From Desulfatiglandales bacterium (GTDB taxonomy: Bacteria; Desulfobacterota; DSM-4660; Desulfatiglandales; Desulfatiglandaceae): 64,000 nt of DNA. Position 1 is the first letter of the stretch. Every line of letters starts with the position of its first letter. The stretch covers positions 1,920,001 through 1,984,000 of the forward strand of contig OY762721.1 of NCBI GenBank assembly GCA_963666345.1. Direction: 5' to 3'. A program made the translations under genes and the position numbers. Below, piece by piece: positions 6,312 through 60,023 of this stretch. The notes below the pieces were generated by a model that did not search any database, was not told where the DNA came from, and was given only the letters and a program-made list of their open reading frames with translations.

Positions 6312-6336
6312 AAATTGGGAAAAAATAAAAGAGCTG

Positions 6337-6365
6337 TTGACAATTATCTAAAAGCAAAGTATCGT
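6337..6365 (+). promoter_or_regulatory. sigma70-type promoter of dsrC
   Basis: TTGACA-17 nt-TATCGT, followed by an AGGAGG ribosome binding site before the ATG at 6437. Confidence 0.6.
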
Positions 6366-6436
6366 TATTTGCTTAAATTAATATAATGAATATTATTAGG
6401 CGTGTGGGTGATATCATAAAAAGGAGGTTATAGGTT

Positions 6437-35419: not shown

Positions 35420-36680
35420 CTAATACTTTTCAAGTCTTACCTGGTCTTTAATTCTCTTTACATGGCCGCGGTCCAGGCCTTTTACTTCGCATCCAAGTTC
35501 AAAAAACCTTTTTATTTTCTCGTCATTGAGGATGCCGGAGCAGTAGATGATGGCCACCGGATTGCCCACCATTTCGACGATTTCATCAGGTGTCAGTTTC
35601 AGGTATTCCTGGTGTCTGACTGCCAGCACTACCGCATCCGCCCCTTTCAGTGTATCCGTCAGATTCGTGTGTATGCGCAGTCCTGTAAGGTTTTCCTAGT
35701 TTCGGAAAAAACGCGCCCATGAATGGCCGGGTGCGGGATAGGTCTCCTGTTTCTCAAACTCCCACCAGTGTTTTACATAGGGGTCATGAACGGATACCTC
35801 ACCCCCCATCTCGGTCAGTTTTCTCACTATCATCTCAGAGCCGCTGTAGCGGGTATCACCCACGTCCTCCCTGTAGGACACACCGAGGACCGCGATGTTT
35901 GATGCCGCAACTATCTTTCCCATGTTACGCAGCGCGTCACGCACCAGCTGGACGACATGAAGGGAGCGGGTATCGTTTATGTCGATGGCAAGGGGGGTAA
36001 TCTTGAAGATATCGTCGTCAAAGCCCATGAGCGAATTGTATGCCCATACGCCAAGCCCCCCGTCCTTGGGAAGGCAGTATCCACCGATTCCGGGACCGGG
36101 GAAAATAATGTTTGAATGGGTGGGTCGGATCTTTATGGCGTCTATGACCTTTATAAGGTCCACCCCATTTCTCTCCGAGAAAAGGCTCCATTCATTTAGA
36201 AAGGAAAGGATTGTGGCCCGATATGAATTTTCCACGATCTTGCATGTTTCACTTTCTATGGGCCGGTCAAGAACCGTTAAAGGAAATTTCTCGACATTAA
36301 TCACATTTGAAAGAAACCTTGTGACACGGCTTTTTGCCTCATCATTAATGCCTGAGCATACGCGCCAGAAATCGCGAATGGAAGCGACATAGTTTTTACC
36401 GGGCATCACTCTTTCAAATGAATGGGTAAGAAGGGGCTCGGAGCCGTTCAGGCCCCTTTTTTCAAAGGCTTTTTTATAACCAGGTAGGCGATATATTCGG
36501 TTGTCCTAGGAGGCACGGTCGTCTCAATGAGCACCAGACAATCAGGTCTTTCTTATCTTATCCCCTATTATCTGGAGGCTTTGTTCAAGAGCCTCGATAT
36601 CAGCATGGCCTTTTCTGACATCTCCCACGGTTTCCTTGTGGTAGTCACACTGCACATCCACCGCTACAATGTCCGCAATA
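35420..36680 (-). pseudogene. Truncated, disrupted second copy of the NDP-sugar dehydrogenase
   Basis: Homologous to 38782-40473; in-frame TAG at 35696-35698, frameshifts near 36470-36560, N-terminal part missing. Confidence 0.9.
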
Positions 36681-38781: not shown

Positions 38782-40473
38782 TTATAAGGCACTCTCATTA
38801 TTCAATACCTGATCCTTAATCCTTTTAACATGCCCCCTGCCAAGCCCTTTTACCTCGCAACCCAACTCAAAATAACGTTTAATGGCTTCATCATTCAAAA
38901 TTCCGAAGCAGTCAATTATTGAGATAGGATTACCGGCCATTTCAACGACCTTATCAGGAGTCAAGCTTAGATAATCCTTGTGCCTGACAGCAAGCACAAC
39001 CGCATCGGCACCTTTAAGCACATCTGCCATGTTTTTATGGACAACAATTTTAGAAAGCTTCTCCTGACCCCTGAAAAACCTGGCCCATGACTTTTGCGGG
39101 GCAGGATATGTATCCTGTTTTTCAAGTTCCCACCAATGCTTGACATAAGGGTCGTGTACTACCACCTCACCGCCCATCTCGGTCAGTTTTCTTACTATCA
39201 TCTCAGAGCCACTGTAACGCGTATCACCCACGTCCTCCCTGTAGGAAACGCCCAGAACCGTTATGTTTGATGCCGCAACTATCTTTCCCATGTTACGCAG
39301 CGCGTCACGCACCAGCTGGACGACATGAAGGGAGCGGGTATCGTTTATGTCGATGGCAAGGGGGGTAATCTTGAAGATATCGTCGTCAAAGCCCATGAGC
39401 GAATTGTATGCCCATACGCCAAGCCCCCCGTCCTTGGGAAGGCAGTATCCACCGATTCCGGGACCGGGGAAAATAATGTTTGAATGGGTGGGTCGGATCT
39501 TTATGGCGTCTATGACCTTTATAAGGTCCACCCCATTTCTCTCCGAGAAAAGGCTCCATTCATTTAGAAAGGAAAGGATTGTGGCCCGATATGAATTTTC
39601 CACGATCTTGCATGTTTCACTTTCTATGGGCCGGTCAAGAACCGTTAAAGGAAATTTCTCGACATTAATCACATTTGAAAGAAACCTTGTGACACGGCTT
39701 TTTGCCTCATCATTAATGCCTGAGCATACGCGCCAGAAATCGCGAATGGAAGCGACATAGTTTTTACCGGGCATCACTCTTTCAAATGAATGGGCAAGAA
39801 GGGGCTTGGAGCCGTTCAGCCCCCTTTTTTCAAATGCCTTTTTTATAATCGGATAGGCGATATACTCGGTCGTGCCCGGTGGCACGGTCGTCTCGATGAG
39901 CACCAGACAATCAGGCCTTATCTTGTCCCCAATTATCTGGAGGCTTTCTTCAAGAGCCTCGATATCCGCATGGCCTTTTCGGACATCCCCGAGGGTCTCC
40001 TTGTGGTAGTCGCACTGCACATCCACCACCACAATGTCAGCAAGGCATAAGGCATCATATGAAAAGGAAGCTGTAAGGGTCTTTTTCTCCTTTACGCACC
40101 GTTTGATCAAGGGGGCGACCTCAGGGTCTTCGGCCTCAACAGGTGCCACACCCTTATTCAGATAGGGTATCTTCCAGTATGAACGGATTGAAGGCCTCTG
40201 CATGCCGATTACCGAATAGATGGAATTACCTGTTTCAGGGTCAACAGAGTCGGCCACAACCCCTGCCATAACGGAACCGACAAACCCAACGCCCATGACG
40301 ACAACGATCTCGCGACCCTTCTCTTTTTCCTGTTTTACAAGCTGTCTCAGGCGTTTGTTTTCATTTTCATAATCCGCCTCTGTCGGAAGGGGGAAGACCT
40401 CGCCGTTCGGAGAGGGGGACACGGGATTATCCGTGTTGTTGGAGGGGTTGGTTGTATTGGGGTCTTTAGTCAT
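38782..40473 (-). CDS. UDP-glucose/GDP-mannose family nucleotide-sugar dehydrogenase
   Basis: VVMGVGFVG, ETTVPPGTT, ERVMPG, KIVENSYR, PGPGIGGYCLPKD, LGVSYREDVGDTRYS. Confidence 0.93.
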   Translation of the reverse strand: MTKDPNTTNPSNNTDNPVSPSPNGEVFPLPTEADYENENKRLRQLVKQEKEKGREIVVVMGVGFVGSVMAGVVADSVDPETGNSIYSVIGMQRPSIRSYWKIPYLNKGVAPVEAEDPEVAPLIKRCVKEKKTLTASFSYDALCLADIVVVDVQCDYHKETLGDVRKGHADIEALEESLQIIGDKIRPDCLVLIETTVPPGTTEYIAYPIIKKAFEKRGLNGSKPLLAHSFERVMPGKNYVASIRDFWRVCSGINDEAKSRVTRFLSNVINVEKFPLTVLDRPIESETCKIVENSYRATILSFLNEWSLFSERNGVDLIKVIDAIKIRPTHSNIIFPGPGIGGYCLPKDGGLGVWAYNSLMGFDDDIFKITPLAIDINDTRSLHVVQLVRDALRNMGKIVAASNITVLGVSYREDVGDTRYSGSEMIVRKLTEMGGEVVVHDPYVKHWWELEKQDTYPAPQKSWARFFRGQEKLSKIVVHKNMADVLKGADAVVLAVRHKDYLSLTPDKVVEMAGNPISIIDCFGILNDEAIKRYFELGCEVKGLGRGHVKRIKDQVLNNESAL

Positions 40474-40550
40474 TAATGGGTTCCTTTCTGATTAGGTTTA
40501 ACGGCCCACTTGTATTGTTTAAAAACTATAAAAGATAAAACAAATTTTAT

Positions 40551-40885
40551 TTAGCCGCCCGTGCGCTTCGCTTACTTGATTAACGGGACAAAGAAGGATG
40601 AAAAGATTTTTGCTCTGCCGACACTGGCAGAGCAAAAGCTTCATTTGCTTCGCAAAAGGTAAACAGCGGTATCAGTTTCAGGAATTGGGGCCTGCAGTTG
40701 AGAAGCCTTTGATTCAATTTTGGACCTCTCGAAGCTGGTTCCCTAATAACTAATAACAGTGTCCTTGTTTTCTTTGCCGCCCGTTCGTTTCACTCACTTG
40801 ATTGACGGGACAAAAAAGGATGAAAAAATATTTGCTCTGCCGATGCTGGCAGAGCAAAAGCTCCAATTTTACTTCGCAAAAGTTA
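40551..40885. repeat. Hairpin element copies 1-2 (type A)
   Basis: 40551-40660 and 40776-40885: CCGCCCGT...CTTGA...GGATG...TTTGCTCTGCC-loop-GGCAGAGCAAAAGCT...CTTCGCAAAAG. Confidence 0.92.
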
Positions 40886-40972
40886 AAGTCGGATTTTCAT
40901 TTAAGCACTTGGGAAAAGTCAAGTACTGCTACCCCAGGGAAAGCTTCCAATGCTTGCGCAGTAAAGTACATT

Positions 40973-41356
40973 TCAAATATTATCATTGCCCCTTTCGAGA
41001 ACCAGACGGCGAATAACGGCCTTTTCGCCCTTGAAGTTTACCAGAATCCCAAGGTGCATGCCTGTGGACCGCAGGTAGTTGAGGAGCTGCGCCTGGTGCG
41101 CCTTGGTCAGTTCATCCACCGCTTTCAGTTCCAGAATGACCTGGTTTTCAACTATCAAATCGGCAAAGTATTCGCCTACGATAGTCCCTTTGTAATTAAC
41201 ACTTATAGGTACCTGGGATTCAGCTTTGAGTCCGAGGTTTTGAAGTTCGAGCAGGAGGGCATTTTCGTAGACCTTTTCAAGGAAGCCTTCACCCAGTATG
41301 CGGTGGACCTCAAAGATAGCGCCGTTGATCTTGTAGGTAAGTTCTCTTGAATCCAT
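40973..41356 (-). CDS. GxxExxY protein (PD-(D/E)XK nuclease-like fold)
   Basis: EVHRILGEGFLEKVYENAL, ADLIVENQVILELKAV, AQLLNYL...GILVNF. Confidence 0.95.
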   Translation of the reverse strand: MDSRELTYKINGAIFEVHRILGEGFLEKVYENALLLELQNLGLKAESQVPISVNYKGTIVGEYFADLIVENQVILELKAVDELTKAHQAQLLNYLRSTGMHLGILVNFKGEKAVIRRLVLERGNDNI

Positions 41357-41419
41357 TATTATGGAATGTTCAGCGGCCCGTTATTATTGATTAAAAAGTT
41401 ATAAAAGACAAAAGACTGT

Positions 41420-41500
41420 TTAGCCGCCCGTTCACTTCGTTCACTTGATTAACGGGACAAGGCAGGATGTTTTTCCTCGGGCGATGCTCCCCGAGGAAAA
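41420..41500. repeat. Hairpin element copy 3 (type B stem)
   Basis: Same 5' half as type A; stem TTTTCCTCGGG-cgatgctc-CCCGAGGAAAA. Confidence 0.9.
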
Positions 41501-41684
41501 GAGCCCAAGAGCAGGGCATCTTGGCAGATGAGCGGCTAGTAGAATAACCTTTTGGATGTTTCTTGTGCCAAATCCAGGCAGTGCCCCAGTTAAATACGCT
41601 TCGCTGTCCATGCGGAATTCTACCGGGCAGGCATGACGCGCTGTAAGAAACCAGGGGCATCTATTCTTGGTTGGCGGGGCATTG

Positions 41685-41939
41685 TTATTTATGGTAATGC
41701 TTTGTTATAGAAATTATTTCAATTTTATCTTCAGGCAGGCAAATAAAGATGGCTCTATATTTCTTATCCAAACGGAATGAATAAATATGCCGGTGTTTGG
41801 GTTCTAACAATTCAGTATTTAATGAAGGATGAGATGGATCATTCTCAAAAAGTTTTTTAGCCTTTTCCCATTTTTTATTAAGAGCATGTTTTTGAAGATA
41901 TTCCTTGATATCGTCTCTAAGTGGTAAAATGGAAGGCAT
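41685..41939 (-). CDS. RelE-superfamily toxin
   Basis: LFENDPSHPSLNTELL...YSFRLDKKYRAIF...HYH. Confidence 0.8.
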   Translation of the reverse strand: MPSILPLRDDIKEYLQKHALNKKWEKAKKLFENDPSHPSLNTELLEPKHRHIYSFRLDKKYRAIFICLPEDKIEIISITKHYHK

Positions 41940-41945
41940 TTTGAT

Positions 41946-42209
41946 TTATCGATTAATAGATGATTTTTTTAAACCTTCTTCCAGATCTTTTAAGAAACCT
42001 TCTTCATACAAATCTGTTGCCGCAAACTCAGATATAATCGATTCAACTTTATCATTTTTAAAAGACTTTAATTCAATTGGTTTTCTCTCAAGTCTCCTTA
42101 GCAGCTTTTTTCGCTCTTCATCTGTGAGATTGTCGACGATTTCATAGAGTGTATCCATAGGTATTTCTATTTTCTTTGTTATTGTTTCTTTAAGAGTAAT
42201 TTGAGGCAT
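41946..42209 (-). CDS. Putative antitoxin
   Basis: 87 aa ORF with GGAGG RBS directly upstream of the toxin. Confidence 0.75.
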   Translation of the reverse strand: MPQITLKETITKKIEIPMDTLYEIVDNLTDEERKKLLRRLERKPIELKSFKNDKVESIISEFAATDLYEEGFLKDLEEGLKKSSINR

Positions 42210-42430
42210 ATTGCACCTCCCTAAAATGGGGATTTTAAAAAGACAATACCTTAGAGATTATCATTTATTAATCTAAGTGTCAAAATCCCAAGGAAAAATA
42301 TCGTAACTCTCTTTAATAATTTGTAGTAGCTAAGATATGATCTGACACATACCCTTTCTCGCCTGTCACGCTTTTTTCGTGTTTCCCGTTTCATTATAAC
42401 CAATAACCGATAACCTTGCTCTTGTTTCTT

Positions 42431-42765
42431 TGCCGCCCGTTCGAATTGCTCGCTTGACAAATCAGGATAAAAACGGATGTTTTTTTACTCTGCCGATGCT
42501 GGCAGAGTAAAAGCTCCAATTTTGCTTCGCAAAAGGTGAATGTGGCTTTTGTTTTCAGAAGTTGAGATCTGAAGATCAAGTGCCTTCTATTCCTCACAGG
42601 CACTGCAGAGAACAAGGACGAAAAACATGTGATTTCTCTGACAGTCTTTCCCTTGGAACCTTGCCCCCTGGGACCCTTGAACCCTGCTTTTTTAACCGCC
42701 CGCTTCGCTTGACAAAGAAGGATAAAGACAGGATGTTTTTTTGCTCTGCCGATGCCGGCAGAGCA
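42431..42765. repeat. Hairpin element copies 4-5 (type A)
   Basis: 42431-42537 complete; 42694-42765 ends right after the stem. Confidence 0.92.
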
Positions 42766-42843
42766 CACGGCCATCTCTGCGCAGCATAGACGCCTGGGGA
42801 AAGAATCCTATATGATATAGGGTCAAATTTGCTCCTGAACCAT

Positions 42844-43245
42844 CTAAAGATCATGCTCCGATAGTTGTACCAATCCCGGGATAAACTTGAAATGTTTGTC
42901 CTTTGAATAAATTTTGTATCCGTGCTGAAAAGCAACTGAAGCAATCCATATATCGTTTGTGGGAATAGGGGTTCCAGCTTCCCTCAAATTATGCAATATT
43001 GAAGCATAAAAATCAGCACTAACCTCATCAATGAAGTGAACGACTACTCTTGGAGAATCAAGAAAAACATTAAGCTCTTCCCTGTTTTTGGTTTCATGGC
43101 GACCGCCTTTAAAACCTGAAAAAAGCTCCCCGATGCTAATGACGGAAAAACCTATCAGATCAATTTTTCTCAACGTATCGACAACATTCACTTCACCCTT
43201 CATGGCGAGTGAGTATATATTCGTGTCGATCAGAACTTTTTTCAT
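42844..43245 (-). CDS. vapC: VapC family PIN-domain toxin
   Basis: LIDTNIY, IGEL, PIPTNDIWIA, SKDKHF. Confidence 0.93.
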   Translation of the reverse strand: MKKVLIDTNIYSLAMKGEVNVVDTLRKIDLIGFSVISIGELFSGFKGGRHETKNREELNVFLDSPRVVVHFIDEVSADFYASILHNLREAGTPIPTNDIWIASVAFQHGYKIYSKDKHFKFIPGLVQLSEHDL

Positions 43246-43502
43246 TTCCAGAGCTCCTGGTCAACTCGCCGCTCTTGGCTAATCTTCGCATGGATTTTTT
43301 CAAATTCATCATTGCTCCAACTTCCAAATAATTCATCTAGGTCATTATATTCACGCGTATATCTCTTTTCCTTTTTGAGTCCAAGGCCTTCTTTGATTAT
43401 TTCAAGGGTCAGCTGATTAACACTCTTACCTTTTTCAGCAGCAGTCTGCTTGAGCTTCTCAGCAACCTCGGCCTCAATGCCTCTAATGGTGACCGCCTTC
43501 AT
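43242..43502 (-). CDS. FitA-like RHH antitoxin
   Basis: AVTIRGIE..VAEKLK..A..GKSVNQ; 4-nt overlap with vapC; palindrome ATGATTGCA-ttt-TGTAATCAT at 43531-43551 upstream. Confidence 0.88.
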   Translation of the reverse strand: MKAVTIRGIEAEVAEKLKQTAAEKGKSVNQLTLEIIKEGLGLKKEKRYTREYNDLDELFGSWSNDEFEKIHAKISQERRVDQELWK

Positions 43503-43671
43503 AAGGGCCTCCTGATATTTCCATCAGTTTATGATTGCATTTTGTAATCATTTTATGACATCACATGGTTTTTGTCAAGTACTTCGGGAAACTCGAGGGG
43601 TTGATAAAAACATGAAAAGAATCTTTAACCGCCCAGTTGGTTTTGGAACCAACAAAGACCAAAAACATTGT

Positions 43672-43780
43672 TTAACCGCCCGTTCACTGCGTTCGCTTGA
43701 CAATACAGGATAAAGACAAGATGTTTTTTTGCTCTGCCGATGCTGGCAGAGCAAACGCTCCATTTTGCTACGCAAAAGGT
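43672..43780. repeat. Hairpin element copy 6 (type A)
   Basis: Full-length match to the consensus. Confidence 0.92.
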
Positions 43781-43894
43781 GAAGGTTGGTTTTCATTTAA
43801 CCACCAATTATTTTATTGGCTGTAGGGACAATAAAATAATAAAGATCTTCCGTGCCCTTAAATTTTTAGATAGTGAGGGAGTGCCTCTGGGCAA

Positions 43895-44191
43895 TTATTT
43901 CTTTTTGAGTTCCCTTAGCTGTTCACCGAATAGTTGGTAAATATCTTTGCGATGGCCTACATAGTGAATCTGTAAGACCTTCTCGTCTTCCAGTATTTTG
44001 TAAATGATTCTATATCGTTTTGCACGCAGGGAAAGATAGCCGGAAAGTTCTTTTTCAAGGAATTTGCCTGAATAGGGCTTTTCCTGCATCTGTTCTATTT
44101 TAGACTTTATAACCGGTTTTAAGTGGGGATGTAGTTTTTTGATCTGATTACGAGAGGTTTCAGAGTAAAGCAACCTGAACTTCCGGGCCAT
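43895..44191 (-). CDS. RelE/ParE family toxin
   Basis: KPYSGKFLEKELSGYLSLRAKRYRIIY...VGHRKDIY. Confidence 0.9.
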   Translation of the reverse strand: MARKFRLLYSETSRNQIKKLHPHLKPVIKSKIEQMQEKPYSGKFLEKELSGYLSLRAKRYRIIYKILEDEKVLQIHYVGHRKDIYQLFGEQLRELKKK

Positions 44192-44460
44192 TACTCCGCC
44201 CATACATCTTTATGCGTGTAGGCTTTACCGGCCTTGAAATCTTTCTCGGATGCATCCAGGGCCTTAAGAATGCCCGAATCGGAAAGGATCTCGATTGTCT
44301 CTAGTAGCCCGACGTAACGGTCCGGTGTTAACATAACACCAACGGCTACCCCGTTTTTCGTCACCGTAATAGTAGAGTCCTCATCCGTCATATCCTTGAT
44401 GATATCAAGAAAATTCTTTTTTACAGTTGTTACCGGTATAATTTTTTGAATATCATCCAT
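44191..44460 (-). CDS. Phd/YefM family antitoxin
   Basis: IPVTTVKKNF...ITVTKNGVAVGVM...LLETIEILSD. Confidence 0.9.
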   Translation of the reverse strand: MDDIQKIIPVTTVKKNFLDIIKDMTDEDSTITVTKNGVAVGVMLTPDRYVGLLETIEILSDSGILKALDASEKDFKAGKAYTHKDVWAE

Positions 44461-44604
44461 TTAGAAATTTCCCCTATGAATTATAATGACCATAATAATT
44501 TCAAGTTCTTATAAAGTCAATATGGAAGGGCATTGAGAATATTAGGAAATCAGGTCTAATTTTTGGTTCGATCGGATATCAGAAAACAGAAGAACAAATT
44601 TTAA

Positions 44605-44872
44605 TTAACCGCCCGTTTCGCTTGACAACACAGGATAAGGACAGGATGTTTTTTTACTCTGCCGACCCTGGCAGAGCAAAAGCTCCATTTGCTTCGCAAA
44701 GGTTGAGGTTGGGTTTTCATTTAAGCGCCAGGGGAAATTCAATCATCAATTACTTCATCAGCTGCTGAAGCAACAAAAAGAAAAGAAGAATTGTTGTTTA
44801 ACCGCCCGTTCGCGTTGCTCACTTGATTAACGGGACGGGGCAGGATGTTTTTCCTCGGGCGATGTTCCCCCG
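44605..44872. repeat. Hairpin element copies 7 (A) and 8 (B, truncated)
   Basis: 44605-44703 and 44798-44872. Confidence 0.9.
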
Positions 44873-45000
44873 GTCTCCACTTATGCATGGCACTAAAAAT
44901 GGGTAATTTACAGTTCTTACATTGGCAGGGAATACAATTATTTCATGGAAAAGGTTTTATTATGGTGCAATTTGCCTCGGGCGCCAAATTCTTCAGTCAC

Positions 45001-46482
45001 CTAATCACCCAGTAGCAGGAGTAGGATGGACGACAGGACGCCGTTATTCAAAGCCACTCTTTTGACACCCATGCCAATGCACTGTGAGCCCCACTTTTCA
45101 CTGTCATTAAATTCGCTGTTCACAAAAATAAATGTTTGGCCATCTTCACTCAGAATCCCTGCACCGCTTTCTTCATCTGGAGTGCCCGGATCAAATGTGA
45201 TGGTGATAGTGCCGTCGGATGAAATCGAATAAATGCCGCTCTCAGTGCCACTACCGGAAGTAAATGTTGTTGAAAATGTGTTGTTGCCTTCAAGATCGTC
45301 CCCAATCTGCCTGTTCAATTCATCCTCTTTCGTACAGCTGCCGGTAAAAGTCCCGTCTGACATAAAAGTGAACGTCTCTTTCATGATCAAAACCTTGTCA
45401 TTGACACCCCATGAACCCACAGCACCACCATGAAATGCGCTCTCAAATTCATGAATTTCATATACCGTGTCATCGGGAAAATACTGCGAGAAACCACTCC
45501 CCTTTTTGACACCCATGCCAATGCACTGTGAGCCCCACTTTTCACTGTCATTAAATTCGCTGTTCACAAAAATAAATGTTTGGCCATCTTCACTCAGAAT
45601 CCCTGCACCGCTTTCTTCATCTGGAGTGCCCGGATCAAATGTGATGGTGATAGTGCCGTCGGATGAAATCGAATAAATGCCGCTCTCAGTGCCACTACCG
45701 GAAGTAAATGTTGTTGAAAATGTGTTGTTGCCTTCAAGATCGTCCCCAATCTGCCTGTTCAATTCATCCTCTTTCGTACAGCTGCCGGTAAAAGTCCCGT
45801 CTGACATAAAAGTGAACGTCTCTTTCATGATCAAAACCTTGTCATTGACACCCCATGAACCCACAGCACCACCATGAAATGCGCTCTCAAATTCATGAAT
45901 TTCATATACCGTGTCATCGGGAAAATACTGCGAGAAACCACTCCCCTTTTTGACACCCATACCAATGCACAGTGAGCCCCACTTTTCACTGTCACTAAAT
46001 TCGCTGTTCACAAAAATAAATGTTTGGCCATCTTCACTCAGAATCCCTGCACCGCTTTCTTCATCTGGAGTGCCCGGATCAAATGTGATGGTGATAGTGC
46101 CGTCGGATGAAATCGAATAAATGCCGCTCTCAGTGCCACTACCGGAAGTAAATGTTGTTGAAAATGTGTTGTTGCCTTCAGAATCATCCCCAATCTGCCT
46201 ATTCAATTCATCCTCTTTCGTACAGCTGCCGGTAAAAGTCCCGTCTGACATAAAAGTGAACGTCTCTTTCATGATCAAAACCTGGTCATTGGCACCCCAT
46301 GCACCCTCAGCACCCCCATGAAATCCGCTCTCAAATTCATGAATTTCATATACCGTGTCGTCGGGAAAATACCTGCTGAATGCCAATGAGTATGAGGCTG
46401 GAATTTCAAATCCAATAATAAGCAGCAACGCAAAGCTCAGTATAAAAAGTCTTTTCAATAGAAAGTTTTTAGTATTATCCAA
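45001..46482 (-). CDS. Secreted acidic protein of three ~148-aa tandem repeats with a hydrophobic C-terminal tail
   Basis: Signal peptide; 444-bp DNA period (45233/45677/46121); ends VLSSILLLLLGD. Confidence 0.88.
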   Translation of the reverse strand: MDNTKNFLLKRLFILSFALLLIIGFEIPASYSLAFSRYFPDDTVYEIHEFESGFHGGAEGAWGANDQVLIMKETFTFMSDGTFTGSCTKEDELNRQIGDDSEGNNTFSTTFTSGSGTESGIYSISSDGTITITFDPGTPDEESGAGILSEDGQTFIFVNSEFSDSEKWGSLCIGMGVKKGSGFSQYFPDDTVYEIHEFESAFHGGAVGSWGVNDKVLIMKETFTFMSDGTFTGSCTKEDELNRQIGDDLEGNNTFSTTFTSGSGTESGIYSISSDGTITITFDPGTPDEESGAGILSEDGQTFIFVNSEFNDSEKWGSQCIGMGVKKGSGFSQYFPDDTVYEIHEFESAFHGGAVGSWGVNDKVLIMKETFTFMSDGTFTGSCTKEDELNRQIGDDLEGNNTFSTTFTSGSGTESGIYSISSDGTITITFDPGTPDEESGAGILSEDGQTFIFVNSEFNDSEKWGSQCIGMGVKRVALNNGVLSSILLLLLGD

Positions 46483-46662
46483 CCTTAGCTCCTTTCTTTC
46501 ATATTGTATTTAATCCAACAGAATAATCACAATCCATTTTTTTTATAACTGATAGGTCAAATAAATTATTGAGGAACATTATGAAATAATTTTATCCAAT
46601 ATTTAATCATAGCAAGAAATTCGATATTAGAACTTAGCTTTTCAATTTTCATATTTTTTAGA

Positions 46663-47652
46663 TCAAGTATTATAACCTTCCGGATGTTTTTTGTGCCATC
46701 CCCAGGCGGTTTCAATAATAGTCTCAAGGTCTGCAAACCGGGGCTTCCACCCCAGCTCCTTAATTGCTTTATCTCCCGAACCAATAAGCGTAGCAGGGTC
46801 CCCTGGTCTTCGGCTTACGACTTTTGACGGAATCATTTCACCCGTAACATTTTGGCTTACATCGATTATTTCCTTAACCGTGTAACCAACACCATTCCCC
46901 AAGTTGTACTTTCCTCCGGAAAGCCCATTTAAAAGCCCTTCCAATGCAAGCAGATGTGCTGAGGCCAGGTCATATATATGGATGTAGTCGCGGACGCATG
47001 TGCCGTCTCTTGTGGGGTAGTCATCGCCGAAAACATTGACCTGCTTACGTTGCCCCAAGGCCGTTTTGAGGACCAATGGAATAATATGAGTCTCGGGGTC
47101 GTGATCTTCTCCTATTTCACCGTCAGGGTCTGCTCCTGCTGCATTAAAATAGCGCAGAGAAATGTAATTTAATCCGTAGGCTTCTGAAAAATCTTTCAAA
47201 ACAGCCTCTACCATGAGCTTGCTTCGTCCATAAGGGTTAACAGGCACGCACTGGTGGGTTTCAAAGATTGGGTTATCTAACGGCTCACCATATACCGCTG
47301 CCGTAGATGAAAAAATGAAATTCTTCACACCATGATCAATCATGCCTTTAAGAAGTGTGACTGTAGAGCCCACATTATTTCTATAGTACAGAACCGGATC
47401 TGTGACTGATTCTCCAACATTGATATAGGCAGCGAAGTGCATAACAGCACTGATGCGGTTATCGGTAAATAATTGAGAAAGGAGTTCTTTGTCATCCATA
47501 TTCCCCTTAACCAAGCTGCCCCATTTCACGGCCTGAGCGTGACCCCGGCTTAGATCGTCAAGCACAATAGGCAAATAGCCGCTTTCTGACAGCTTCTTGC
47601 ACATGTGAGAGCCGATATAGCCGGCCCCGCCTACAACCAGGATTTTTTTCAT
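46663..47652 (-). CDS. galE: UDP-glucose 4-epimerase
   Basis: GGAGYIGSH, HFAA...VGES, NPYGRSK, LRYFNAAGAD, DGTCVRDYIH. Confidence 0.96.
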   Translation of the reverse strand: MKKILVVGGAGYIGSHMCKKLSESGYLPIVLDDLSRGHAQAVKWGSLVKGNMDDKELLSQLFTDNRISAVMHFAAYINVGESVTDPVLYYRNNVGSTVTLLKGMIDHGVKNFIFSSTAAVYGEPLDNPIFETHQCVPVNPYGRSKLMVEAVLKDFSEAYGLNYISLRYFNAAGADPDGEIGEDHDPETHIIPLVLKTALGQRKQVNVFGDDYPTRDGTCVRDYIHIYDLASAHLLALEGLLNGLSGGKYNLGNGVGYTVKEIIDVSQNVTGEMIPSKVVSRRPGDPATLIGSGDKAIKELGWKPRFADLETIIETAWGWHKKHPEGYNT

Positions 47653-47748
47653 ACCTTATAATTCGTTTTTTAATTAAGCATCCTAGACAGCAACTTCACC
47701 ATCTCGATTTCCAAACAAGTCTATAAATTAAAGATCATATGTAGGAAT

Positions 47749-48969
47749 TCAGCTGCGCCTCCAGAATTTGACTCCCTTTACCAGTTCATTATATCTGTCA
47801 GGGTCCTGCGTTTTTACCTTGAAGACGAATTCTTTTATAAAGGCAAGAAATATGGCTGTGAAAAACCCCACTACAGTGGAAAGGATCACTATCATCTTTT
47901 TTTTAGGAGCAGACCTTGTGTCAGGAGGAACTGCTTTATCAAGCACCTGGATTGTGTTCATATCCTTGGCCTCTTCGATTTTGGCCATCTCGTATTGACT
48001 GGTAAGGAGTTCGAATACCTGCTCCTGGATCTTTGCCTCACGCATCAGCCTTGCCAGCCTCATGCCGAGGTCAGGAAGCTCCTTAAAGGGGATATAGAAG
48101 TTGTCGGCATTTTTTTCAGGGTTTCCTGATTCTATCTTTGCAAGTTGTTTCCGGAGCTCCTCTATCTTTGATTTGAGCATTATAGCTTCATTCTGTTTTT
48201 CAGTACCGAACTTCTTTAAGACTTCAAACTCGGTCTGAGCGGCGATGATCTCTCCCTTTAATGTGGCTGCACCTTCAATGGAGGCCTTTGCCTGCTCATT
48301 AATGGATACAAGATTGTATTTCTCCTGAAACGCCTGGAGACCGGTTTCTGCATTTATTAAATCCTTTTTGGCCTTTTCAAGCCTTTCTTCAAGAAACACC
48401 CTCTTACGCTGGCCTTCAGTAACAAGCACGGTCCTGTTTATCTGATCCAGAGCCTCAACATAGATATTGGCCATGGCTGCAGCCCTTTTCGGGTCCTCTT
48501 CCTCTACTGACACACTTATGATCCCTGTGTCCTTTGAAACATTTATTTTAGTGATTTCTGAAAGCTTATTGTAGACAGGGGAAATGTATTCCGCTTCCCA
48601 CAGTTTTTTGAGATCGAATTTATTGATCAGGACATCGGCCACTGAGCGGCTTTTCATGATCCCGACATAAACATCCGAGCTTGACTGTCCCCCCCCCAAC
48701 AGCCCTGATGCAAGCCCTCCGAAGGCACCTCCCGCCTGAGAAAGGAAAGAGGAAATTCCAGATTTTTGCTGTTGTGGCGGAAGGATTCGAGCAGTTGCAG
48801 TAAATTTCTCAGGCAGATAGAGGCTGTAGCAGACAGAGAAGACTATCGCGATCAAGGTAATCCAGAAGATGAGCCATTTCCTTTTCAGGAGGACGAGTAA
48901 AAGGTCAAGGAGGTTTATTTCGTCTTCCATGCACTCAGGCGGGATGTTATTTGGATCTGTGGGGTTCAT
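47749..48969 (-). CDS. Wzz/GumC-like chain-length determinant (no kinase domain)
   Basis: EDEINLLDL, two TM helices, coiled coil, IQVLDKAVPP..RSAPK. Confidence 0.9.
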   Translation of the reverse strand: MNPTDPNNIPPECMEDEINLLDLLLVLLKRKWLIFWITLIAIVFSVCYSLYLPEKFTATARILPPQQQKSGISSFLSQAGGAFGGLASGLLGGGQSSSDVYVGIMKSRSVADVLINKFDLKKLWEAEYISPVYNKLSEITKINVSKDTGIISVSVEEEDPKRAAAMANIYVEALDQINRTVLVTEGQRKRVFLEERLEKAKKDLINAETGLQAFQEKYNLVSINEQAKASIEGAATLKGEIIAAQTEFEVLKKFGTEKQNEAIMLKSKIEELRKQLAKIESGNPEKNADNFYIPFKELPDLGMRLARLMREAKIQEQVFELLTSQYEMAKIEEAKDMNTIQVLDKAVPPDTRSAPKKKMIVILSTVVGFFTAIFLAFIKEFVFKVKTQDPDRYNELVKGVKFWRRS

Positions 48970-49047
48970 AACCGGACCTCATGATTGGATTTTTTGTTTT
49001 ATTTTTAAACGCCTGTGAGCATTGAGAGAAGAAGAATTCTTGTTTTT

Positions 49048-49678
49048 TTAACCGCCCGTTCACTGCGTTTACTTGATTAAAGGGACAAAAGCAGGATGTT
49101 TTTTTACTCTGCCGATGTTGGCAGAGCAAAAGCTTCATTTGCTTCGCAAAAGGTGAGCAGTAGTTTCAATTTCAGTAGTTGAGGTCTAAAGTCCAAATGC
49201 CTTTTGTTTCTCACAGAGACCACAGAGGGCACAGAGAAAAAACATGCTGTTTCTTCGACAGCGGTTCACTTGGCCCCTTGAAACTGGGAACCCGCTGCGA
49301 AGCTGTGGGACTGAGCGGAGCGTAAGCGGAGCAAAGAATCCTCGACCCCTGGAAACCTTGGACCCTGATTTCTTAACCGCCCGTTCACTGCGTTCACTTG
49401 ATTAGCTGGACAGGGCAGGATGGTTTTCCTCGGGCGATGCTCCCCTGGGGAAAGCTTTCAATGCTTGAGCATTATTTTATAGCGGTGTACATAAAACTTC
49501 TTCTGTAACGTTGATCAAACGATGGCAAAGCTTGAGGCGATGTGTTGATTAAACCGATAAAAGACAAAAGAGTGTTTGACCGCCCGCTTCGCTTGACAAA
49601 ACAGGATGGAAACGGATGTGACCTCTTTTTGCTCTGCCGATGCTGGCAGAGCAAAAGCTCCAATTCCTGCGTAAAGGT
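49048..49678. repeat. Hairpin element copies 9 (A), 10 (B), 11 (A)
   Basis: 49048-49154, 49373-49455, 49576-49678. Confidence 0.92.
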
Positions 49679-49716
49679 GTAAGGTCAACTTTCTTTTCGA
49701 GTCTTACTGGAACGGG

Positions 49717-50022
49717 TTAGGTTTTTTGATTTTTTGAAAGAATGCGGAATGTTTCTTCATATATGATTCTTCTAGGGCCTATGGCGACAATTTCTATCTG
49801 CCGCCTTTTTGGGCGGATACGGTATATGATTCGATATCTTTTAACGCGATAACTTCTCAGACCTTTAAGCTCATCCTTGAGGGCCTTTCCACCGTATGGA
49901 TTCCCGATTATGTTTTTCAAACCGGATCGGATGTGCAATTTGATCATTGGATGAAGCTTCTTTAAAACAGAAGCAATATCGTCCGGGACCCTCGGGACAA
50001 ATTTACCTTCGTCCGTGATCAT
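49717..50022 (-). CDS. RelE/ParE family toxin
   Basis: NPYGGKALKDELKGLRSYRVKRYRIIY...IGPRRIIY. Confidence 0.88.
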   Translation of the reverse strand: MITDEGKFVPRVPDDIASVLKKLHPMIKLHIRSGLKNIIGNPYGGKALKDELKGLRSYRVKRYRIIYRIRPKRRQIEIVAIGPRRIIYEETFRILSKNQKT

Positions 50023-50285
50023 GATTCGGGCAACAGTTCCTCCAGGCCGTATAGGGCCGCTCTGCCTTTTTTCAGTGATTCCAGACCACTTTCAATTTCC
50101 TCCATAAAATTGGAGTCGAATCGAATCTTGATGGTCTCCCGCCAGCTTTCAAATTCATCCGGGCTCACCATTACAGCAACAGGTCGGCCGTTTTTTGTAA
50201 TGATTACCTCTTCATCGGTCTGCTTTACGGAATCGACCAATGCGCTCAGTTTCATCTTGGCTTCCGACACGGACATAGTATTCAT
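50019..50285 (-). CDS. Phd/YefM family antitoxin
   Basis: MSVSEAKMKLS...VIITKNGRPVAVM; operator-like palindrome TTGAC-N10-GTCAA at 50306-50325. Confidence 0.92.
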   Translation of the reverse strand: MNTMSVSEAKMKLSALVDSVKQTDEEVIITKNGRPVAVMVSPDEFESWRETIKIRFDSNFMEEIESGLESLKKGRAALYGLEELLPES

Positions 50286-50417
50286 AATATAGAACCTTAT
50301 ATAGGTTGACTTAAATTATAGTCAATATATAAGCTTTTTTAAAATGACTGTCAAGAATACCGAGGCGAGTAACCGCCCTGTTGGTTCTGAAATCAGCACA
50401 GAAAAAAAGAATTTTTG

Positions 50418-50712
50418 TTAGCCGCCCGTTCACTGCGTTCACTTGACAAAACAGGATAAAAACGGATGAAAAGATTTTTACTCTGCCGACATGGCAGAGT
50501 AAAAGCTTCGTTTGCTTCGCAAAGGGTGGCTGGTTGTTCCTTTTCCAACTCCCAAAAAAAATCGATCACCATTCACCGGTTACTGGGATAACAAAAAAAA
50601 TAAAAGATCTTCTATGTGATTAGCTTCTTTCCCTTGGCTCCTCGACTCCTGGAACCCTTGGACCCTGTCTTATTAACCACCCGCTTCGCTGGCAAAACAA
50701 GATATAAACGAG
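50418..50712. repeat. Hairpin element copies 12 (A) and 13 (5' half only)
   Basis: 50418-50527 and 50673-50712. Confidence 0.88.
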
Positions 50713-50730
50713 TGGTTACACCCCATAATA

Positions 50731-51354
50731 TCACCTGGAGTTTGGAAGCATAAGGTGGCCCTTCTCCACCAGGTAGCCGAGTATTTTCATGGCCCCCTCC
50801 TGGGGAGTCAATTCTGCTGTCTTTATAACAAGCTCGGGATTAACAGGTGCCTCATAAGGGTCATCGATTCCGGTAAAGCCCTTTATCTCTCCTTTGCGTG
50901 CCTTCTTGTACAAACCCTTTGGGTCCCTCTTTTCACATACGTCAATAGGGGCATCTATAAATATTTCCATAAAAAACAGTCCGGCTTCATCATGTATCTT
51001 TCTTGCTATTTCACGGTCCTTTGCATATGGTGAAATGAAGCTGGTCATGGTTATGAAGCCTGCGTCTGCGAAAAGTTTAGCGACCTCTCCTATACGGCGT
51101 ATATTTTCCTCACGGTCTTCAGCTGAAAAACCCAGGTTCTTGTTCAGTCCATGTCTGACATTATCTCCGTCAAGGACATATGCAAGTCTGTCTCTTTGAA
51201 CAAGGGCATGCTCAAGGGTAAATGCCAGGGTGCTTTTGCCTGATGCACTAAGGCCAGTCATCCAGATAGTGCAGCCCCTTTGTTGGAGCAGATTCTCACG
51301 TAATTCACGGTTTACATGTCCCTCATGCCAAATGATATTATTCGCTATCTGCAT
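50731..51354 (-). CDS. cysC: Adenylyl-sulfate kinase
   Basis: IWMTGLSASGKST, LDGDNVRHGL, ENIRRIGEVA, RDPKGLY, FTGIDDPYE. Confidence 0.97.
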   Translation of the reverse strand: MQIANNIIWHEGHVNRELRENLLQQRGCTIWMTGLSASGKSTLAFTLEHALVQRDRLAYVLDGDNVRHGLNKNLGFSAEDREENIRRIGEVAKLFADAGFITMTSFISPYAKDREIARKIHDEAGLFFMEIFIDAPIDVCEKRDPKGLYKKARKGEIKGFTGIDDPYEAPVNPELVIKTAELTPQEGAMKILGYLVEKGHLMLPNSR

Positions 51355-51387
51355 TGATATTCACCTATTAAATTTTGCTAGAAAAGG

Positions 51388-51486
51388 TTTAACCTTTCGC
51401 TTTGCTTGACAAAACAGGATAAAAACGGATGTTTTTTACTCTGCCGACACTGGCATAGCAAAAGCTTCATTTGCTACTCAAAAGGT
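51388..51486. repeat. Hairpin element copy 14 (type A, degenerate)
   Basis: GCTTGACAAAACAGGATAAAAACGGATG...CTCTGCCGACACTGGCATAGCAAAAGCTT; abuts the stop codon of the upstream gene. Confidence 0.85.
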
Positions 51487-53081
51487 TACTGCAGGGAAGG
51501 ATATTTCTTGCCGCAGGCAGGGCAGGTCTTGTCTTTATTCAGGGTCTCCCCGCATTCGCATACCCAGCCTTTATGGGTTGCCGGATTTCCGACCACAAGG
51601 GCATGATCGGGTACGTCCCTTGTTACCACGGCACCTGCGCCGATAAGAGAGTAACTGCCGATTGTAACCCCGCACACTACCGTGCAGTTGGCACCAAGGG
51701 TTGCCCCCTTCTTTACAAGGGTAGGCCTTGCCTGATCCATTTTACTAATCTCAGCCCTCGGATTGTACACATTGGTAAACACCATGCTGGGCCCGCAGAA
51801 CACCCCGTCTTCAAGGGTAACGCCCTTATACACGGATACGTTATTCTGTATCTTGCACCTGTTTCCTATTACCGCTTCAGGGCCTATGACCACATTCTGC
51901 CCTATATTGCACTGTCTGCCGACGCATGAGCCTGAAAGAAGATGAGAAAAATGCCATATCTTTGTTCCATCACCTATCTTGCAGTCCTGGTCAATAATAG
52001 AAGAGGGGTGCGCATAAAAGCCTTTTTCATCTTTATCGGCTGCCTGAATTTTCGCCTCTCTGCCCGCAGCCTCCACTTCTATCCTTCTGCCTCCATCATC
52101 GAGCGACATTTGAGAGCGGTTGAGCACCCTCAGGACCCTGAGGCCCTCTATCCCGTCTGTTACAGGGATCTTCCCGTTTGTGATGCAATCGATAAAATGT
52201 TCACACTCAAGCCTTAATGGTTCCGCCTCCGCCATTTCAACCCTTTCAGGCATCCCCTTTTCAGGCACCGGAATATTTTTCTCCCAGTTTATCTTGTGCG
52301 GATAGAGAAGCAGTTTGTCCTTCCAGGGTTGGGTGTCGTCAAAAACCGCCATTTTTTTGTCCCCCACAACTACCAGTTTCTGCTCTTTAAAGGGGTGAAG
52401 CCAGGAGACAAATATGTGCGCCTTCAGGCCTGAGGGAAACTCAAGGTGCGTGGTGGTGACATCCGCGATCTTCTTGTGAAGGTAGTTTCCGCCTGTGGCT
52501 GAAACCGCGTCAGGCGTTTCTCCTGCAAGGGAAAGGATCATGGATATGTCATGGGGTGCAAAAGACCAGAGGATGTTTTCTTCCCGCCTGATCTTTCCCA
52601 GGTTAAGCCTGTTTGAATATATATAGTTGATCCGGCCAAGCTCGCCACCTGAAGCAAGCTCCTTGAGTCTTATAAAGGCTGGATGGTGCTGCAGCAGGTG
52701 CCCTACCATCAGGACAAGGCCCTTATCTTCGGCAATAGAGATAAGTTCTTCGGCCGCATTTTCATCAAGCACAAGCGGTTTTTCAACATACACATGCCTT
52801 CCAGCCAGAAGCGCCTCCCTTGCCAGGTTATAATGGGTCTCGGCAGGGGTGGCAATAACCACTCCTTTTATATCTTCCCTTGAGATCACTTCATTTAAGG
52901 CGATGCAGGTATCTATGTCAGGATAGTTTTTCCTGAACTGGGCCAGGGTCTCTTCGTTTCTGTCACAGATAAGCCTCAGGGAACCGAGTTGATAGTAATT
53001 TCTTACAAGATTTTTCCCCCAGTAGCCGCTTCCAATAACTGCGATGCCCGGTCTTTTTTTATCTGCCGTGCCTTTGTCCAA
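51486..53081 (-). CDS. Fused Gfo/Idh/MocA dehydrogenase (WbpB-like) and LbH N-acetyltransferase (WbpD-like)
   Basis: IGSGYWG, YVEKP, SFAPHD; then [37 protein letters not shown]. Confidence 0.9.
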
Positions 53082-54671: not shown

Positions 54672-55102
54672 AGACTTTCACAAAATAGAGGAGAGAGGGA
54701 GGGGCGGATCTGAAAAACCTTGCCAGACTGCTTTTACCCCCTCTCCCACAGCAGGGGAAAAGGGAGTGAAGGGAATTATAAAGTTAAAATATAATTTACC
54801 CGGAGGATATCATGAAAAAACAGGCGGTTATTCTGGCCATGCTTTTGTTTCTTTTTCCGGCAGGGGTGACAGCCGGGAAGATAACCCTTTCATGCGAGGT
54901 ACTGGAGCCTTCTCCTGAAATCAAGGCCGTTGATCACGACCTTCAAAGTCTCAGGTATCTGCTCATTCATCACGCCAACAGCAAGGACTGTGAATCGGCA
55001 TGCAAAAATGACCCACCTATAGGGCGAATCGGCGTCCAAAATTGACCCACCCCTGAAAGCCTTCTATTCTGCTGTGACTATGGTAGAAGGAGGCGGAAAG
55101 GG

Positions 55103-56620
55103 ATGCTCACAGTGGAAACAATCCGTAAGATACGATTAGCTGTTCTCAGAGATGGCAAATCCATACGTCAGACAGCGAAGGATCTGCGCCTTAGCAAAAA
55201 TACAGTAAAAAAGGCGATAAGGAGCGGAGAAACATCTTTTCAGTACGAACGAAGCAACCAGCCAAGACCCAAGCTGGGGCCGTTTATAGACATGCTGAAA
55301 GGCTTTCTGGAAGAAGACGAGAAACTGCCCAAAAAACTGCGCAGGACAGCCCAGATACTTTTTGAAGAGCTGCAACTCAACGGCTACGAAGGTGGCTATG
55401 ACAGCGTACGGAGATATGTTCAAAGATGGCGCCAGGATCAAAGGAGCTTGCCAAAGGAGGTATTTATACCTTTGGTATTTGATCCTGCAGAAGCCTTTCA
55501 GTTTGACTGGAGTCATGAGTGGGTAGATCTGGACGGAAGCAGAGTAAAGGCAAAGGTTGCACATATAAGGTTATGTCACAGCCGCTACTTCCTTTGTATT
55601 GCCTACCCCAGAGAAACCCAGGAGATGGTGTTTGATGCCCATATCAGGGCCTTTGAGTTTTTTGGGGGAGTTTGCCGTAAAGGCATCTATGACAATCTCA
55701 AAACAGTGGTTAACAAGATCCTGGGAGGAAGGGAAAGACAGTTCAACAGCCGCTTCAGCCAACTGTGTTCCCATTATTTATTTGAACCGGTAAGCTGCAC
55801 CCCTGCTGCAGGTTGGGAAAAGGGTCAGGTGGAAAACCAGGTAGGTGTGGTCAGAAGGAGATTTTTCACTCCCCGAATCAAGGCCAGGGATTTCACACAC
55901 CTAAACGAGCTGCTTAGAGAACAATGCATCACCTGGGCAAAGACCCGTAAGCATCCAACAATATCTGATAAGACGGTTTGGCAGGTCTACAGTGAAGAGA
56001 GACCCTATCTGATAAATCTACCACCTCTCTTTGATGGATATGCACAACGTCCAGCCAGGGTTACCCCCAGCTCACTTGTAACCTATGACCGGAACCGATA
56101 CAGCGTTAATTGCAGCCAGGTGGGTAAAGCGGTCTATATGAGAGTATATGCCGATCGGATAGTGATAGTAAATAACGGTTGTATCGTAGGAGAGCATGAT
56201 AGGCATTTTGGAAAGAACAAGACTATTTTTAATCCCTGGCATTATGTCCCGGTCCTTGAACGTAAGCCCGGGGCTCTCCGTAATGGAGCCCCCTTTAAAG
56301 ACTGGCAACTTCCCGATCCTGTCGAAGGCGTCCTAAATGGGCTTCAAAACCGTTTTTCCGACTGGGACCGTCAGTTTGTGGCCATTCTAAATGCTGTTCC
56401 TTTCTACGGACTTGAGGCTGTAAGTAAAGCCTGTAAGGAGGCCCTAAAGATAAGGGCCGTAAGTAAAGAGGTGGTTCTCAATCTTTTAAACAGGGATCAG
56501 GATCAGGATTGCACGCCTGATTTGGGTATCCCCTCCCATCTGATTCTCAAGCAAGAGCCCATAGCAGACTGCCGCCGCTATGAACGTTTGGTAAGGGAGG
56601 GATACCATGCTGCGCAATGA
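55103..56620 (+). CDS. istA: IS21 transposase
   Basis: [23 protein letters not shown] (DDE), GALRNGAPF. Confidence 0.96.
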
Positions 56621-57338: not shown

Positions 57339-57617
57339 ATAAAGAAGGGATCAACTACTCAACTATTTAACCATATTTTTTTCTCAGGGGTGGGTCAATT
57401 TTGGACGCCGATGATGGGTCAATTTTCAACGCCTATTGACACAAGGACAGGGAAACGCTTTCGAACTGGCTTAAAACCAGGCATGGGGCAAACGTGGAGT
57501 TTTTTATAGGGGGCAGAAGATACAGCGGCCTTCTGTGCCGCCTGGCAAACTGCTTCGGTCGCGGGATACTGATATTCAAGGCGGATGTAAGGCCTGAAAA
57601 AAGGGATATTATAGAGG

Positions 57618-58562: not shown

Positions 58563-58574
58563 ATCTGTTTATTC

Positions 58575-59975: not shown

Positions 59976-60023
59976 GATTTTTTCGGGTCCAAGGGGTCAA
60001 GGATTCAAGTTATGCTTAGGTTA

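Follow-up and report, generated by a model that had tools for sequence, protein, structure and literature searches.

We analysed a 64,000-nt stretch of contig OY762721.1 (the window; coordinates are those of the window unless C1 or Mb is given), from a genome (G000) assembled as one 4.16-Mb contig (C1). The window carries a polysaccharide locus of ~55 kb (8-63 kb), the upstream part of which is an array of short gene units punctuated by copies of a ~125-nt multi-hairpin element. Thirteen full copies of the element and one partial copy lie on the + strand between 40545 and 51495, every gene between them is on the minus strand, i.e. opposite to all 14 copies, and the remaining ~44 kb of the polysaccharide locus contains none. 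A first-pass annotation of the window had reported about 14 such copies, with their positions, their single orientation and a consensus, and all of this is borne out by a repeat scan, by inspection of the copies by eye, and by two models. A profile hidden Markov model (HMM) built from 13 copies gives 13 + strand matches in the window (E 5e-35 to 1.4e-21), a covariance model recovers the same 13, and neither finds anything outside the array, in agreement with the annotation's statement that the window holds no copies elsewhere. The direct-repeat families returned by the repeat scan include every position that had been listed. The 14th copy (at 50673) is degenerate, retains the first two modules only, and is missed by both models. 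Three smaller pieces can be added to the original list, namely two solo first-module sites and one half copy.

A full copy, such as copy 1 (40545..40673; nhmmer, and 88.6 bits with the covariance model), consists of modules A and B, a hairpin (P2), and a module D with a further hairpin (P3). In the sense of the genes, which were identified with Pfam and are all on the minus strand, the array is headed by a GFO/IDH/MocA-hexapeptide fusion gene (wbpBD-like, 51486..53081). Its 3' end is overlapped by copy 14 (51383..51495; this and the other copies are on the + strand and were found with both models unless stated otherwise, copies 5, 8 and 14 also by eye). The APS kinase gene cysC (50731..51354) comes next and is followed, 15 nt past its stop codon, by partial copy 13 (modules A and B, 50673..50715; repeat family D12 and eye), by copy 12 (50412..50538), and by a solo first-module-like site (50366..50395, recognised by eye; strain homology stops beside it, as described below). 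The second of two Phd-ParE pairs (no. 2, 49717..50285), which has a promoter-like site at 50343-50315 in our promoter scan, precedes copies 11 (49570..49694), 10 (49367..49499) and 9 (49042..49167). Downstream of these lies a cassette-like block encoding Wzz, an epimerase and a 493-aa repeat protein (45001..48969), followed by copies 8 (44792..44916, with P2 broken) and 7 (44599..44718). Phd-ParE pair no. 1 (43895..44460; promoter-like site 44520-44492) is followed by copy 6 (43666..43794) and by a second solo first-module-like site with a small hairpin of its own (43624..43653; by eye, and coinciding with a strain breakpoint). A ribbon-helix-helix (RHH) antitoxin and PIN toxin pair, VapBC-like (42844..43502; sigma-70-like promoter 43578-43550), is followed by copies 5 (42686..42796, lacking module D) and 4 (42423..42550). 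Two small open reading frames (ORFs) of 84 and 87 aa (41685..42209), with a weak HigB-like match (E 0.0011) that is below the cut-off, precede copy 3 (41414..41530), which has a second type of P2 stem. The last cassette encodes a 127-aa PDDEXK_3 (GxxExxY) protein (40973..41356; PF13366, E 8e-42); directly downstream of it are a half copy made of the 3' arm of P2 and a D-like hairpin (40920..40965, + strand; repeat family D15 and eye), then copy 2 (40767..40898) and copy 1. A UDP-glucose/GDP-mannose dehydrogenase gene (38782..40473) closes the array. Each of the eight minus-strand units named in the first-pass annotation therefore does have one to three copies downstream (8/8), and Pfam confirms the genes, weakly in the case of the small pair.

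Where two neighbouring copies have no gene between them, the gap is filled by a recurring non-coding module. We note that at 42380-42420, 42645-42690 and 49170-49370 elements are flanked, or gaps filled, by short tandem repeats (about seven bases) and by a CACAGAG-rich non-coding module that recurs; the same is seen at loci L054, L057 and L058 of a related genome, G103. We also note that the 493-aa ORF at the end of the Wzz-epimerase block (45001-46482) is built of three 444-nt units that are 98-100% identical, with weak Ig-like (Big_9) and SprB hints.

Read on the + strand, antisense to the genes, the element begins with a T-rich lead-in ending in TTTAA or a variant of it, which is followed by CCGCCCG, by P1, a segment that varies, by CTTGAYWA..GGAY and by a spacer in which GGAT occurs a second time. 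A T run then leads to hairpin P2 (11-13 bp, with loop CGAYNNT), and an A run to the small triloop hairpin P3. The two P2 stem types in the array differ in stem sequence and have an identical loop. Related copies in other genomes indicate that P1 is also a hairpin, with stems that are wholly different between genomes and that are reduced in short copies to 2 bp and a three-base loop. In an alignment of 34 copies from five genomes and a metagenome contig (L073), 88.4% of cells in the proposed stems are paired, compared with 64.2% in shuffles (0/500 as high), and the covariation score is 0.531, compared with 0.160 in shuffles and at most 0.131 when the structures are slid by 1-3 columns. P2 alone is paired in 95.4% of cells, and 9 of its 11 pairs vary on both sides. 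The element is, then, a conserved folded sequence under selection that is tied to unit boundaries. Since modules B and P2 each occur in two types and all four combinations of these exist, copies have recombined within the element. Two copies, at 428-518 of L073 and at C1:2000301-2000501, have an insertion of ~110 nt in P1, and in some G103 copies the P2 loop is enlarged by long insertions; the hairpin tips of the element can accommodate large inserts.

A conserved fold just past the stop codons of genes raises the possibility of a cis-acting RNA in a long polycistronic message, which might stabilise the message upstream of it, guide processing, or shield the glycan genes from the promoters of the toxin-antitoxin (TA) units. 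The position and the covariation are as one would expect of such an RNA, as are a bias in orientation (19 of the 24 copies assessed are antisense to the flanking genes) and the P3 loops, which on the gene-sense strand read GNA. Against this, Rfam 15 yields no match at gathering score in the window, and a permissive search yields three chance-level matches (E 0.67-3.1), none of them on the element; the array is without a match at E up to 5 and ten loci from relatives are without one at E up to 0.1. The P2 stems argue in the same direction: in 90 distinct copies they contain 814 Watson-Crick pairs, 20 G-T and 16 A-C, so that G-U pairs (in RNA terms) are not in excess of A-C. Wobble thus favours neither strand, a modest hint that the element acts as DNA rather than as RNA. 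P2 is flanked on both strands by a T run on its 5' side and an A run on its 3' side, no hairpin is directly followed by a T/U tract, and terminator-like sites are not enriched (16, compared with 11.2, sd 4.1, in shuffles). An RNA role would also leave unexplained the differences in units between strains and the partial copies that bracket inserted genes, both described below, and we regard it as very unlikely. Four narrower roles were tried and rejected. Neither promoters nor terminators are enriched over shuffles; a small ORF starting at the GGATG motif is not conserved in relatives; a sigma-54-like spacing in the P2 loop is found in one stem type only; and antitermination of the ops/JUMPStart type, suggested by the GGCGG box of the element, which resembles ops, is at odds with the only NusG paralogue being at 926 kb with no element near it, and with the lack of an Rfam match.

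Across the whole genome the covariance model detects 25 copies, 21 of which fall within 120 kb (1.96-2.08 Mb). Thirteen are those of the array, eight are single or partial copies at 1.988-2.077 Mb, three are at 553-554 kb, and one is at 1.545 Mb. Judged by GC skew, the origin is near 2.14 Mb, ~170 kb from the array, so that the array is not close to the terminus. Two truncated copies (first two modules only) that share 48 identical nt enclose a ParE pair at 553 kb, and two copies without an intact P2 bracket an AAA_14/DUF4143 gene beside an IS110 transposase at 2.031 Mb. The former locus (C1:553464-554599, L014) has three copies downstream of a gene for a 1686-aa RTX/cadherin-like adhesin, and its ParE-type pair is co-oriented with the copies, the opposite of the arrangement in the window. 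Among genomes of the order, a strict sequence pattern occurs in 7 of 209 (reversed-pattern controls, 0), and the covariance model has matches in 12 of the 149 that are at least 85% complete, with many copies in only five of these (23 in G000 in this survey, at least 28 in G103, 16 each in G099 and G026, and 13 in G018). We annotated the arrays of G026, G099 and G103 with Pfam. In G026 the copies are in a glycan locus, downstream of PIN, HicAB, MazF, ParE, RelB and MNT/HEPN units and of a 23S-rRNA-IVS protein gene; in G099 a co-oriented run of seven copies lies downstream of NTase/HepT pairs and a Phd unit; and in G103 copies flank Wzz, GDP-mannose dehydratase and polysaccharide export genes, and also unrelated genes. 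The element is therefore paired with accessory units in four genomes. A blastn search of a plasmid collection with one element gave no match.

Whether the elements do anything at these boundaries is a separate matter. They could be passive repeats, like repetitive extragenic palindromes (REPs), the bacterial interspersed mosaic elements (BIMEs) that these form, or MITEs (transposable elements of the miniature inverted-repeat class), that have accumulated in an already variable glycan and TA region without being causal. Independent insertions, together with homologous recombination of the ordinary kind, would then be the source of the strain differences. The single copies located between housekeeping genes would be at home in this picture, as would the genome-specific stem variants, which are what within-genome amplification would leave, the mosaics with other small modules and heptamer-type tandem repeats, and the presence in G026, G103 and L073 of both orientations, with some copies inverted and in tail-to-tail pairs. 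The numbers fit less well, as 25 copies with 21 in 120 kb contrast with the more than 100 copies per genome, often regularly spaced and alternating in orientation, that the account of REPs in PMC2817692 gives. A strict pattern of one element per unit recurs in four genomes, and the other 44 kb of this operon-rich locus is free of copies. As for MITE features, copies in the source genome lack terminal inverted repeats; tail-to-tail pairs bounded by inverted first modules occur in G018, G026, G103 and L073, and no duplication was recognised at the flanks inspected. Nor is the RAYT (REP-associated tyrosine transposase)-like gene of the window linked to the elements: no element flanks it (10193-11134), and homologues occur in 122 of the 149 genomes of the order, with none found by the window query in G103, the genome with at least 28 copies. 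The suggestion of the first-pass annotation that this enzyme might be the catalyst is accordingly abandoned. We consider the passive reading unlikely overall, although part of the strain evidence, to which we now turn, speaks for it.

L073 is one metagenome contig that covers the array only in part and is 99.88% identical to the flank of the array at 57442-62428. In gene sense its order is a helix-turn-helix (HTH) gene, cysC, the wbpBD-like gene, an RHH-type unit, Phd-ParE no. 2, VapBC and Phd-ParE no. 1, compared with HTH gene, wbpBD-like gene, cysC, Phd-ParE no. 2, Wzz-epimerase-repeat block, Phd-ParE no. 1, VapBC, small pair and GxxExxY in the source genome. VapBC and Phd-ParE no. 1 are thus co-oriented and in swapped order, three units of the source genome are missing from the covered part of the L073 array (the Wzz-epimerase-repeat block and GxxExxY among them), and a new RHH-type unit stands in place of cysC. 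Contigs of three further sequencing runs have the same joints as L073. The array is, therefore, a strain-variable cassette region in which units are re-ordered, missing or replaced in a near-identical strain. In L073 cysC (5563-6174) lies upstream of wbpBD at a distance of 9 nt and lacks surrounding elements, and in the source genome it is on the other side of wbpBD, downstream and bracketed by elements. The two cysC copies have only ~74% nucleotide identity, which suggests that a cassette provided this biosynthetic gene. We note as well that a 2.4-kb stretch (54998-57441) containing an IS21-type istA/istB pair (55103-57338) is missing in L073 and hence is a recent insertion.

The same comparison bears on where exchange takes place. 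Between the strains, Phd-ParE no. 2, taken with most of the element downstream of it, is 98.4% identical, VapBC 94.5% and Phd-ParE no. 1 90%. Phd-ParE no. 2 keeps its downstream element from 49600 on (D, P2 and B of copy 11) while the first module differs, and more generally, even with both flanks retained, the strains have different first modules. Of eight homology-block ends inside the array, four are in, or no more than 10 nt from, an element or solo site: a breakpoint falls at the solo site 43624-43653, for example, and homology stops at 50358, beside the other solo site.

An array of co-oriented sites behind short gene units invites comparison with integrons, of which the chromosomal kind, such as those of Vibrio, typically carry TA cassettes, and whose attC sites have, at the 3' end in cassette orientation, an R' core that reads GTTRRRY. 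The first-pass annotation had proposed an integron-like capture system, and the cassette-like layout, the uneven dispersal, and the different content and order in a close relative all stand; the elements lack the attC fold, and their conservation continues past the putative crossover. Of the three outcomes that the annotation had named as refuting it, none was seen in the comparisons made: no Rfam family matched, dispersal is not uniform, and the relative's gene content differs. The proposal is thus supported in part. The genome does have a true integron (C1:1351351-1359980), complete and ~600 kb from the array, in which an integron integrase gene (intI, C1:1359012-1359980; 322 aa, 472 bits, with the cut-off at 265) is oriented divergently from four cassettes on the minus strand. 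These encode a methyltransferase-like protein, a protein of 305 aa, one of 1256 aa that has a STAND NTPase domain, and one of 296 aa. The repeat of this integron is 166 nt long, GC-rich, 95-98% identical between copies and provided with a closing stem, and is unrelated to the element family. Further copies of the 166-nt repeat are found at C1 positions 3098497, beside a 42-aa C-terminal remnant of intI, and 3278072.

It is conceivable, then, that the array is an atypical CALIN (cluster of attC sites lacking an integron integrase), with divergent attC-type sites whose cassettes are moved in trans by the resident IntI. CALINs are defined in PMC4889954 as at least two attC sites with no integron integrase nearby, and half of those reported there are in replicons that encode IntI. 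Absence of a nearby integrase holds for the array, but counts only if the sites are attC. Several features encourage the idea. The integrase is a strong match that heads an array of its own; one site is downstream of each unit (8/8) in uniform orientation (14/14), as with attC; the gene-sense end of the element is a G-rich box, after which 8 of 14 copies read GTTAA.., and the real integron has GTTAAAC ~30 nt before its first repeat; and some units of G018 and G026 form imperfect palindromes, with inverted first-module copies as their bounds. The fold, however, is not that of attC, which the same source describes as an imperfect palindrome whose ends (R''/R' and L''/L') pair to close a hairpin in single-stranded DNA. 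When the duplex of the 5' 36 nt with the 3' 48 nt was compared with shuffles, 18 full copies of the element gave a mean z of -0.58 (2/18 below -2), whereas the four repeats beside intI gave -2.98 to -4.32 in 4/4 cases, with a closing stem in the minimum-energy fold. Single-strand folds of four copies, on both strands, consist of local hairpins only, with the exception of the copy at 41420. We therefore reject end-to-end, attC-like pairing for the element. In addition, GTT is replaced by GCT, GCA or GTC in 6 of the 14 copies, a purine-rich stretch of 20-30 nt beyond the first module, and so past the putative crossover, is common to 6-7 copies that precede different genes (families D9, D10 and D13), and the integron's own repeat belongs to another family. 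Co-occurrence says nothing either way: IntI is present in four of the five element-bearing genomes, but also in 87 of the 149 genomes of the order. Contigs of metagenome-assembled genomes end beside intI, and in G103 two copies are 8 kb from intI, on the side away from the expected start of an array. Taken together, these observations make an atypical CALIN distinctly improbable.

We favour the view, to which we would give a probability of about 0.5, that the elements are recombination joints of a kind other than attC. In a few Desulfobacterales genomes, self-contained accessory units, mostly type II TA operons with their own promoters, stand in rows with one element usually just downstream of, and antisense to, each unit; according to this view the elements would be the joints at which units are gained, lost and moved. 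In its favour we count the layout of the array, the selected fold, the clustering of copies, the recurrence with accessory units in other genomes, the strain differences, the changed first module next to the retained element of Phd-ParE no. 2, the partial copies that bracket inserted genes at 553 kb and 2.031 Mb, and the recombination within the element. The elements would probably act as folded DNA, recognised by an enzyme that may well be encoded elsewhere, because there is no recombinase within about 300 kb, and the crossover region would be in or beside the first module, which changes independently of both flanks. No tyrosine recombinase is encoded between 1.643 and 2.516 Mb and no serine recombinase anywhere in the genome, so that the first-pass annotation was right about the lack of an integrase in the window with respect to these two classes, although the window does encode the IS21 transposase. 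The other catalyst that it had put forward, the GxxExxY protein, can be set aside, as the array has a single gene for it and PDDEXK_3 did not appear when the arrays of G026, G099 and G103 were scanned with Pfam. We include in our best explanation that the elements form an undescribed family of multi-hairpin intergenic elements. A full-text search of the literature, mostly judged from abstracts, returned no description of the family, nor of arrays of TA cassettes with non-attC repeats in sulfate reducers.

Several observations weigh against the elements being recombination joints. The other four of the eight strain breakpoints are 48-88 nt from an element, at gene ends, and the junction in L073 between the RHH unit and Phd-ParE no. 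2 has no element. The L073 array is 90-98% identical to that of the source genome, compared with 99.9% in the flank, and since the array is the more diverged of the two, the whole segment may be a replacement acquired from a more distant lineage through ordinary homologous exchange. Eight single copies are situated between ordinary genes (Kdo transferase, MscS/ClC, leuA), as REP-like repeats would be, and the element tends to be antisense to flanking genes without being invariably so. Neither circles nor excision products were seen, and short-sided joints in the organism's own sequencing run may be assembly-graph paths or a second strain. Finally, the points at which partial copies are truncated vary (after B, inside P2, before D), which looks more like untidy recombination than like one precise crossover. 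The varied truncation, the single copies between housekeeping genes and the divergent array segment together keep the passive-repeat reading alive.

Could the missing recombinase be one that all such genomes have? Modules bounded by sites for the universal XerC and XerD, acting on a dif-like core in the first module, would do without a dedicated enzyme, and two XerC/D-like genes are present, at 2.516 and 2.872 Mb. In the pdif modules of Acinetobacter plasmids, which often carry TA pairs, XerC/XerD action has been proposed, and the end of our element has TTAAA in common with the XerD arm of dif. The pdif cores, however, are of 28 bp with two arms and alternate in orientation; no such core can be defined in the element, and its copies are direct repeats. 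We found no convincing dif-like core, the array is ~170 kb from the skew-inferred origin and not at the terminus, and the genome's own dif is a weak candidate only. We consider a Xer-type mechanism barely credible.

Some features of the surrounding locus are recorded here. Between 10193 and 13340, in the same glycan locus, the RAYT-like Y1 transposase gene is accompanied by a MazF pair and a ParE gene, with no element nearby. An ORF of 237 aa at 35696-36409 encodes the central and C-terminal domains only of a UDP-glucose dehydrogenase and is probably a gene remnant. Dissimilatory sulfite reductase-like genes (for two NIR_SIR proteins) and dsrC at 1770-6754 fit a sulfate-reducing Desulfobacterales organism.

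Among bacterial systems that store genes as cassettes behind a DNA site that folds, only integrons are, to our knowledge, well understood. In the present case the same layout rests on a site that did not pass the test for the attC fold, while the true integron of this genome uses another repeat. Should the elements be active joints, attC and IntI are not the only basis for shuffling genes as cassettes, and tools that search for attC only would miss a class of variable regions. The case also presents TA units and a sulfate-activation gene that move within a surface-polysaccharide locus, which bears on surface variation in uncultured sediment bacteria. If the elements are passive, they are still a new family of structured repeats with clear covariation that marks hypervariable loci. 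A bolder proposal, which we offer tentatively and think rather doubtful, is that of a second kind of gene-cassette system, with a non-palindromic multi-hairpin site, an enzyme acting in trans (either unrecognised or IntI on a new class of substrate), and a first module exchangeable between two GTTAA-type boxes. Such a system would carry TA and accessory units and be able to capture cysC into the surface-glycan loci of sulfate reducers.

Three known systems other than integrons offer partial parallels. REPs and BIMEs with their RAYTs are likewise structured intergenic repeats located after genes, form mosaics with short motifs, have species-specific variants and in some genomes alternate in orientation; our element differs in its ~25 clustered copies, its larger unit (~125 nt, three hairpins) and its tie to accessory units, and the RAYT-like gene is not co-distributed with it. 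The intergenic mosaic elements, or 'minimal mobile elements', of Neisseria are arrays of short dRS3/RS repeats near surface-structure genes that have been proposed to promote exchange of the DNA between them; they resemble our array in being repeats near surface genes, and differ in having no conserved multi-hairpin fold. The pdif modules are, like the units described here, small, often of TA type, bounded by sites and without a recombinase of their own. They are plasmid-borne, however, with alternating 28-bp sites, whereas the array is chromosomal and has direct repeats of ~125 nt with no dif-like core found. Compared with integron arrays and CALINs, the element lacks the closing arms R''/R' and L''/L', has another triplet in place of the GTT core in 6 of 14 copies and is conserved past the putative crossover; the units have promoters of their own, single copies occur between housekeeping genes, and the real integron of this genome relies on a different repeat. 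What the array does have in common with them is co-oriented sites downstream of short units, a richness in TA cassettes, a content and order that vary between strains, a site conserved as a fold with genome-specific stems, and an IntI elsewhere in the replicon.

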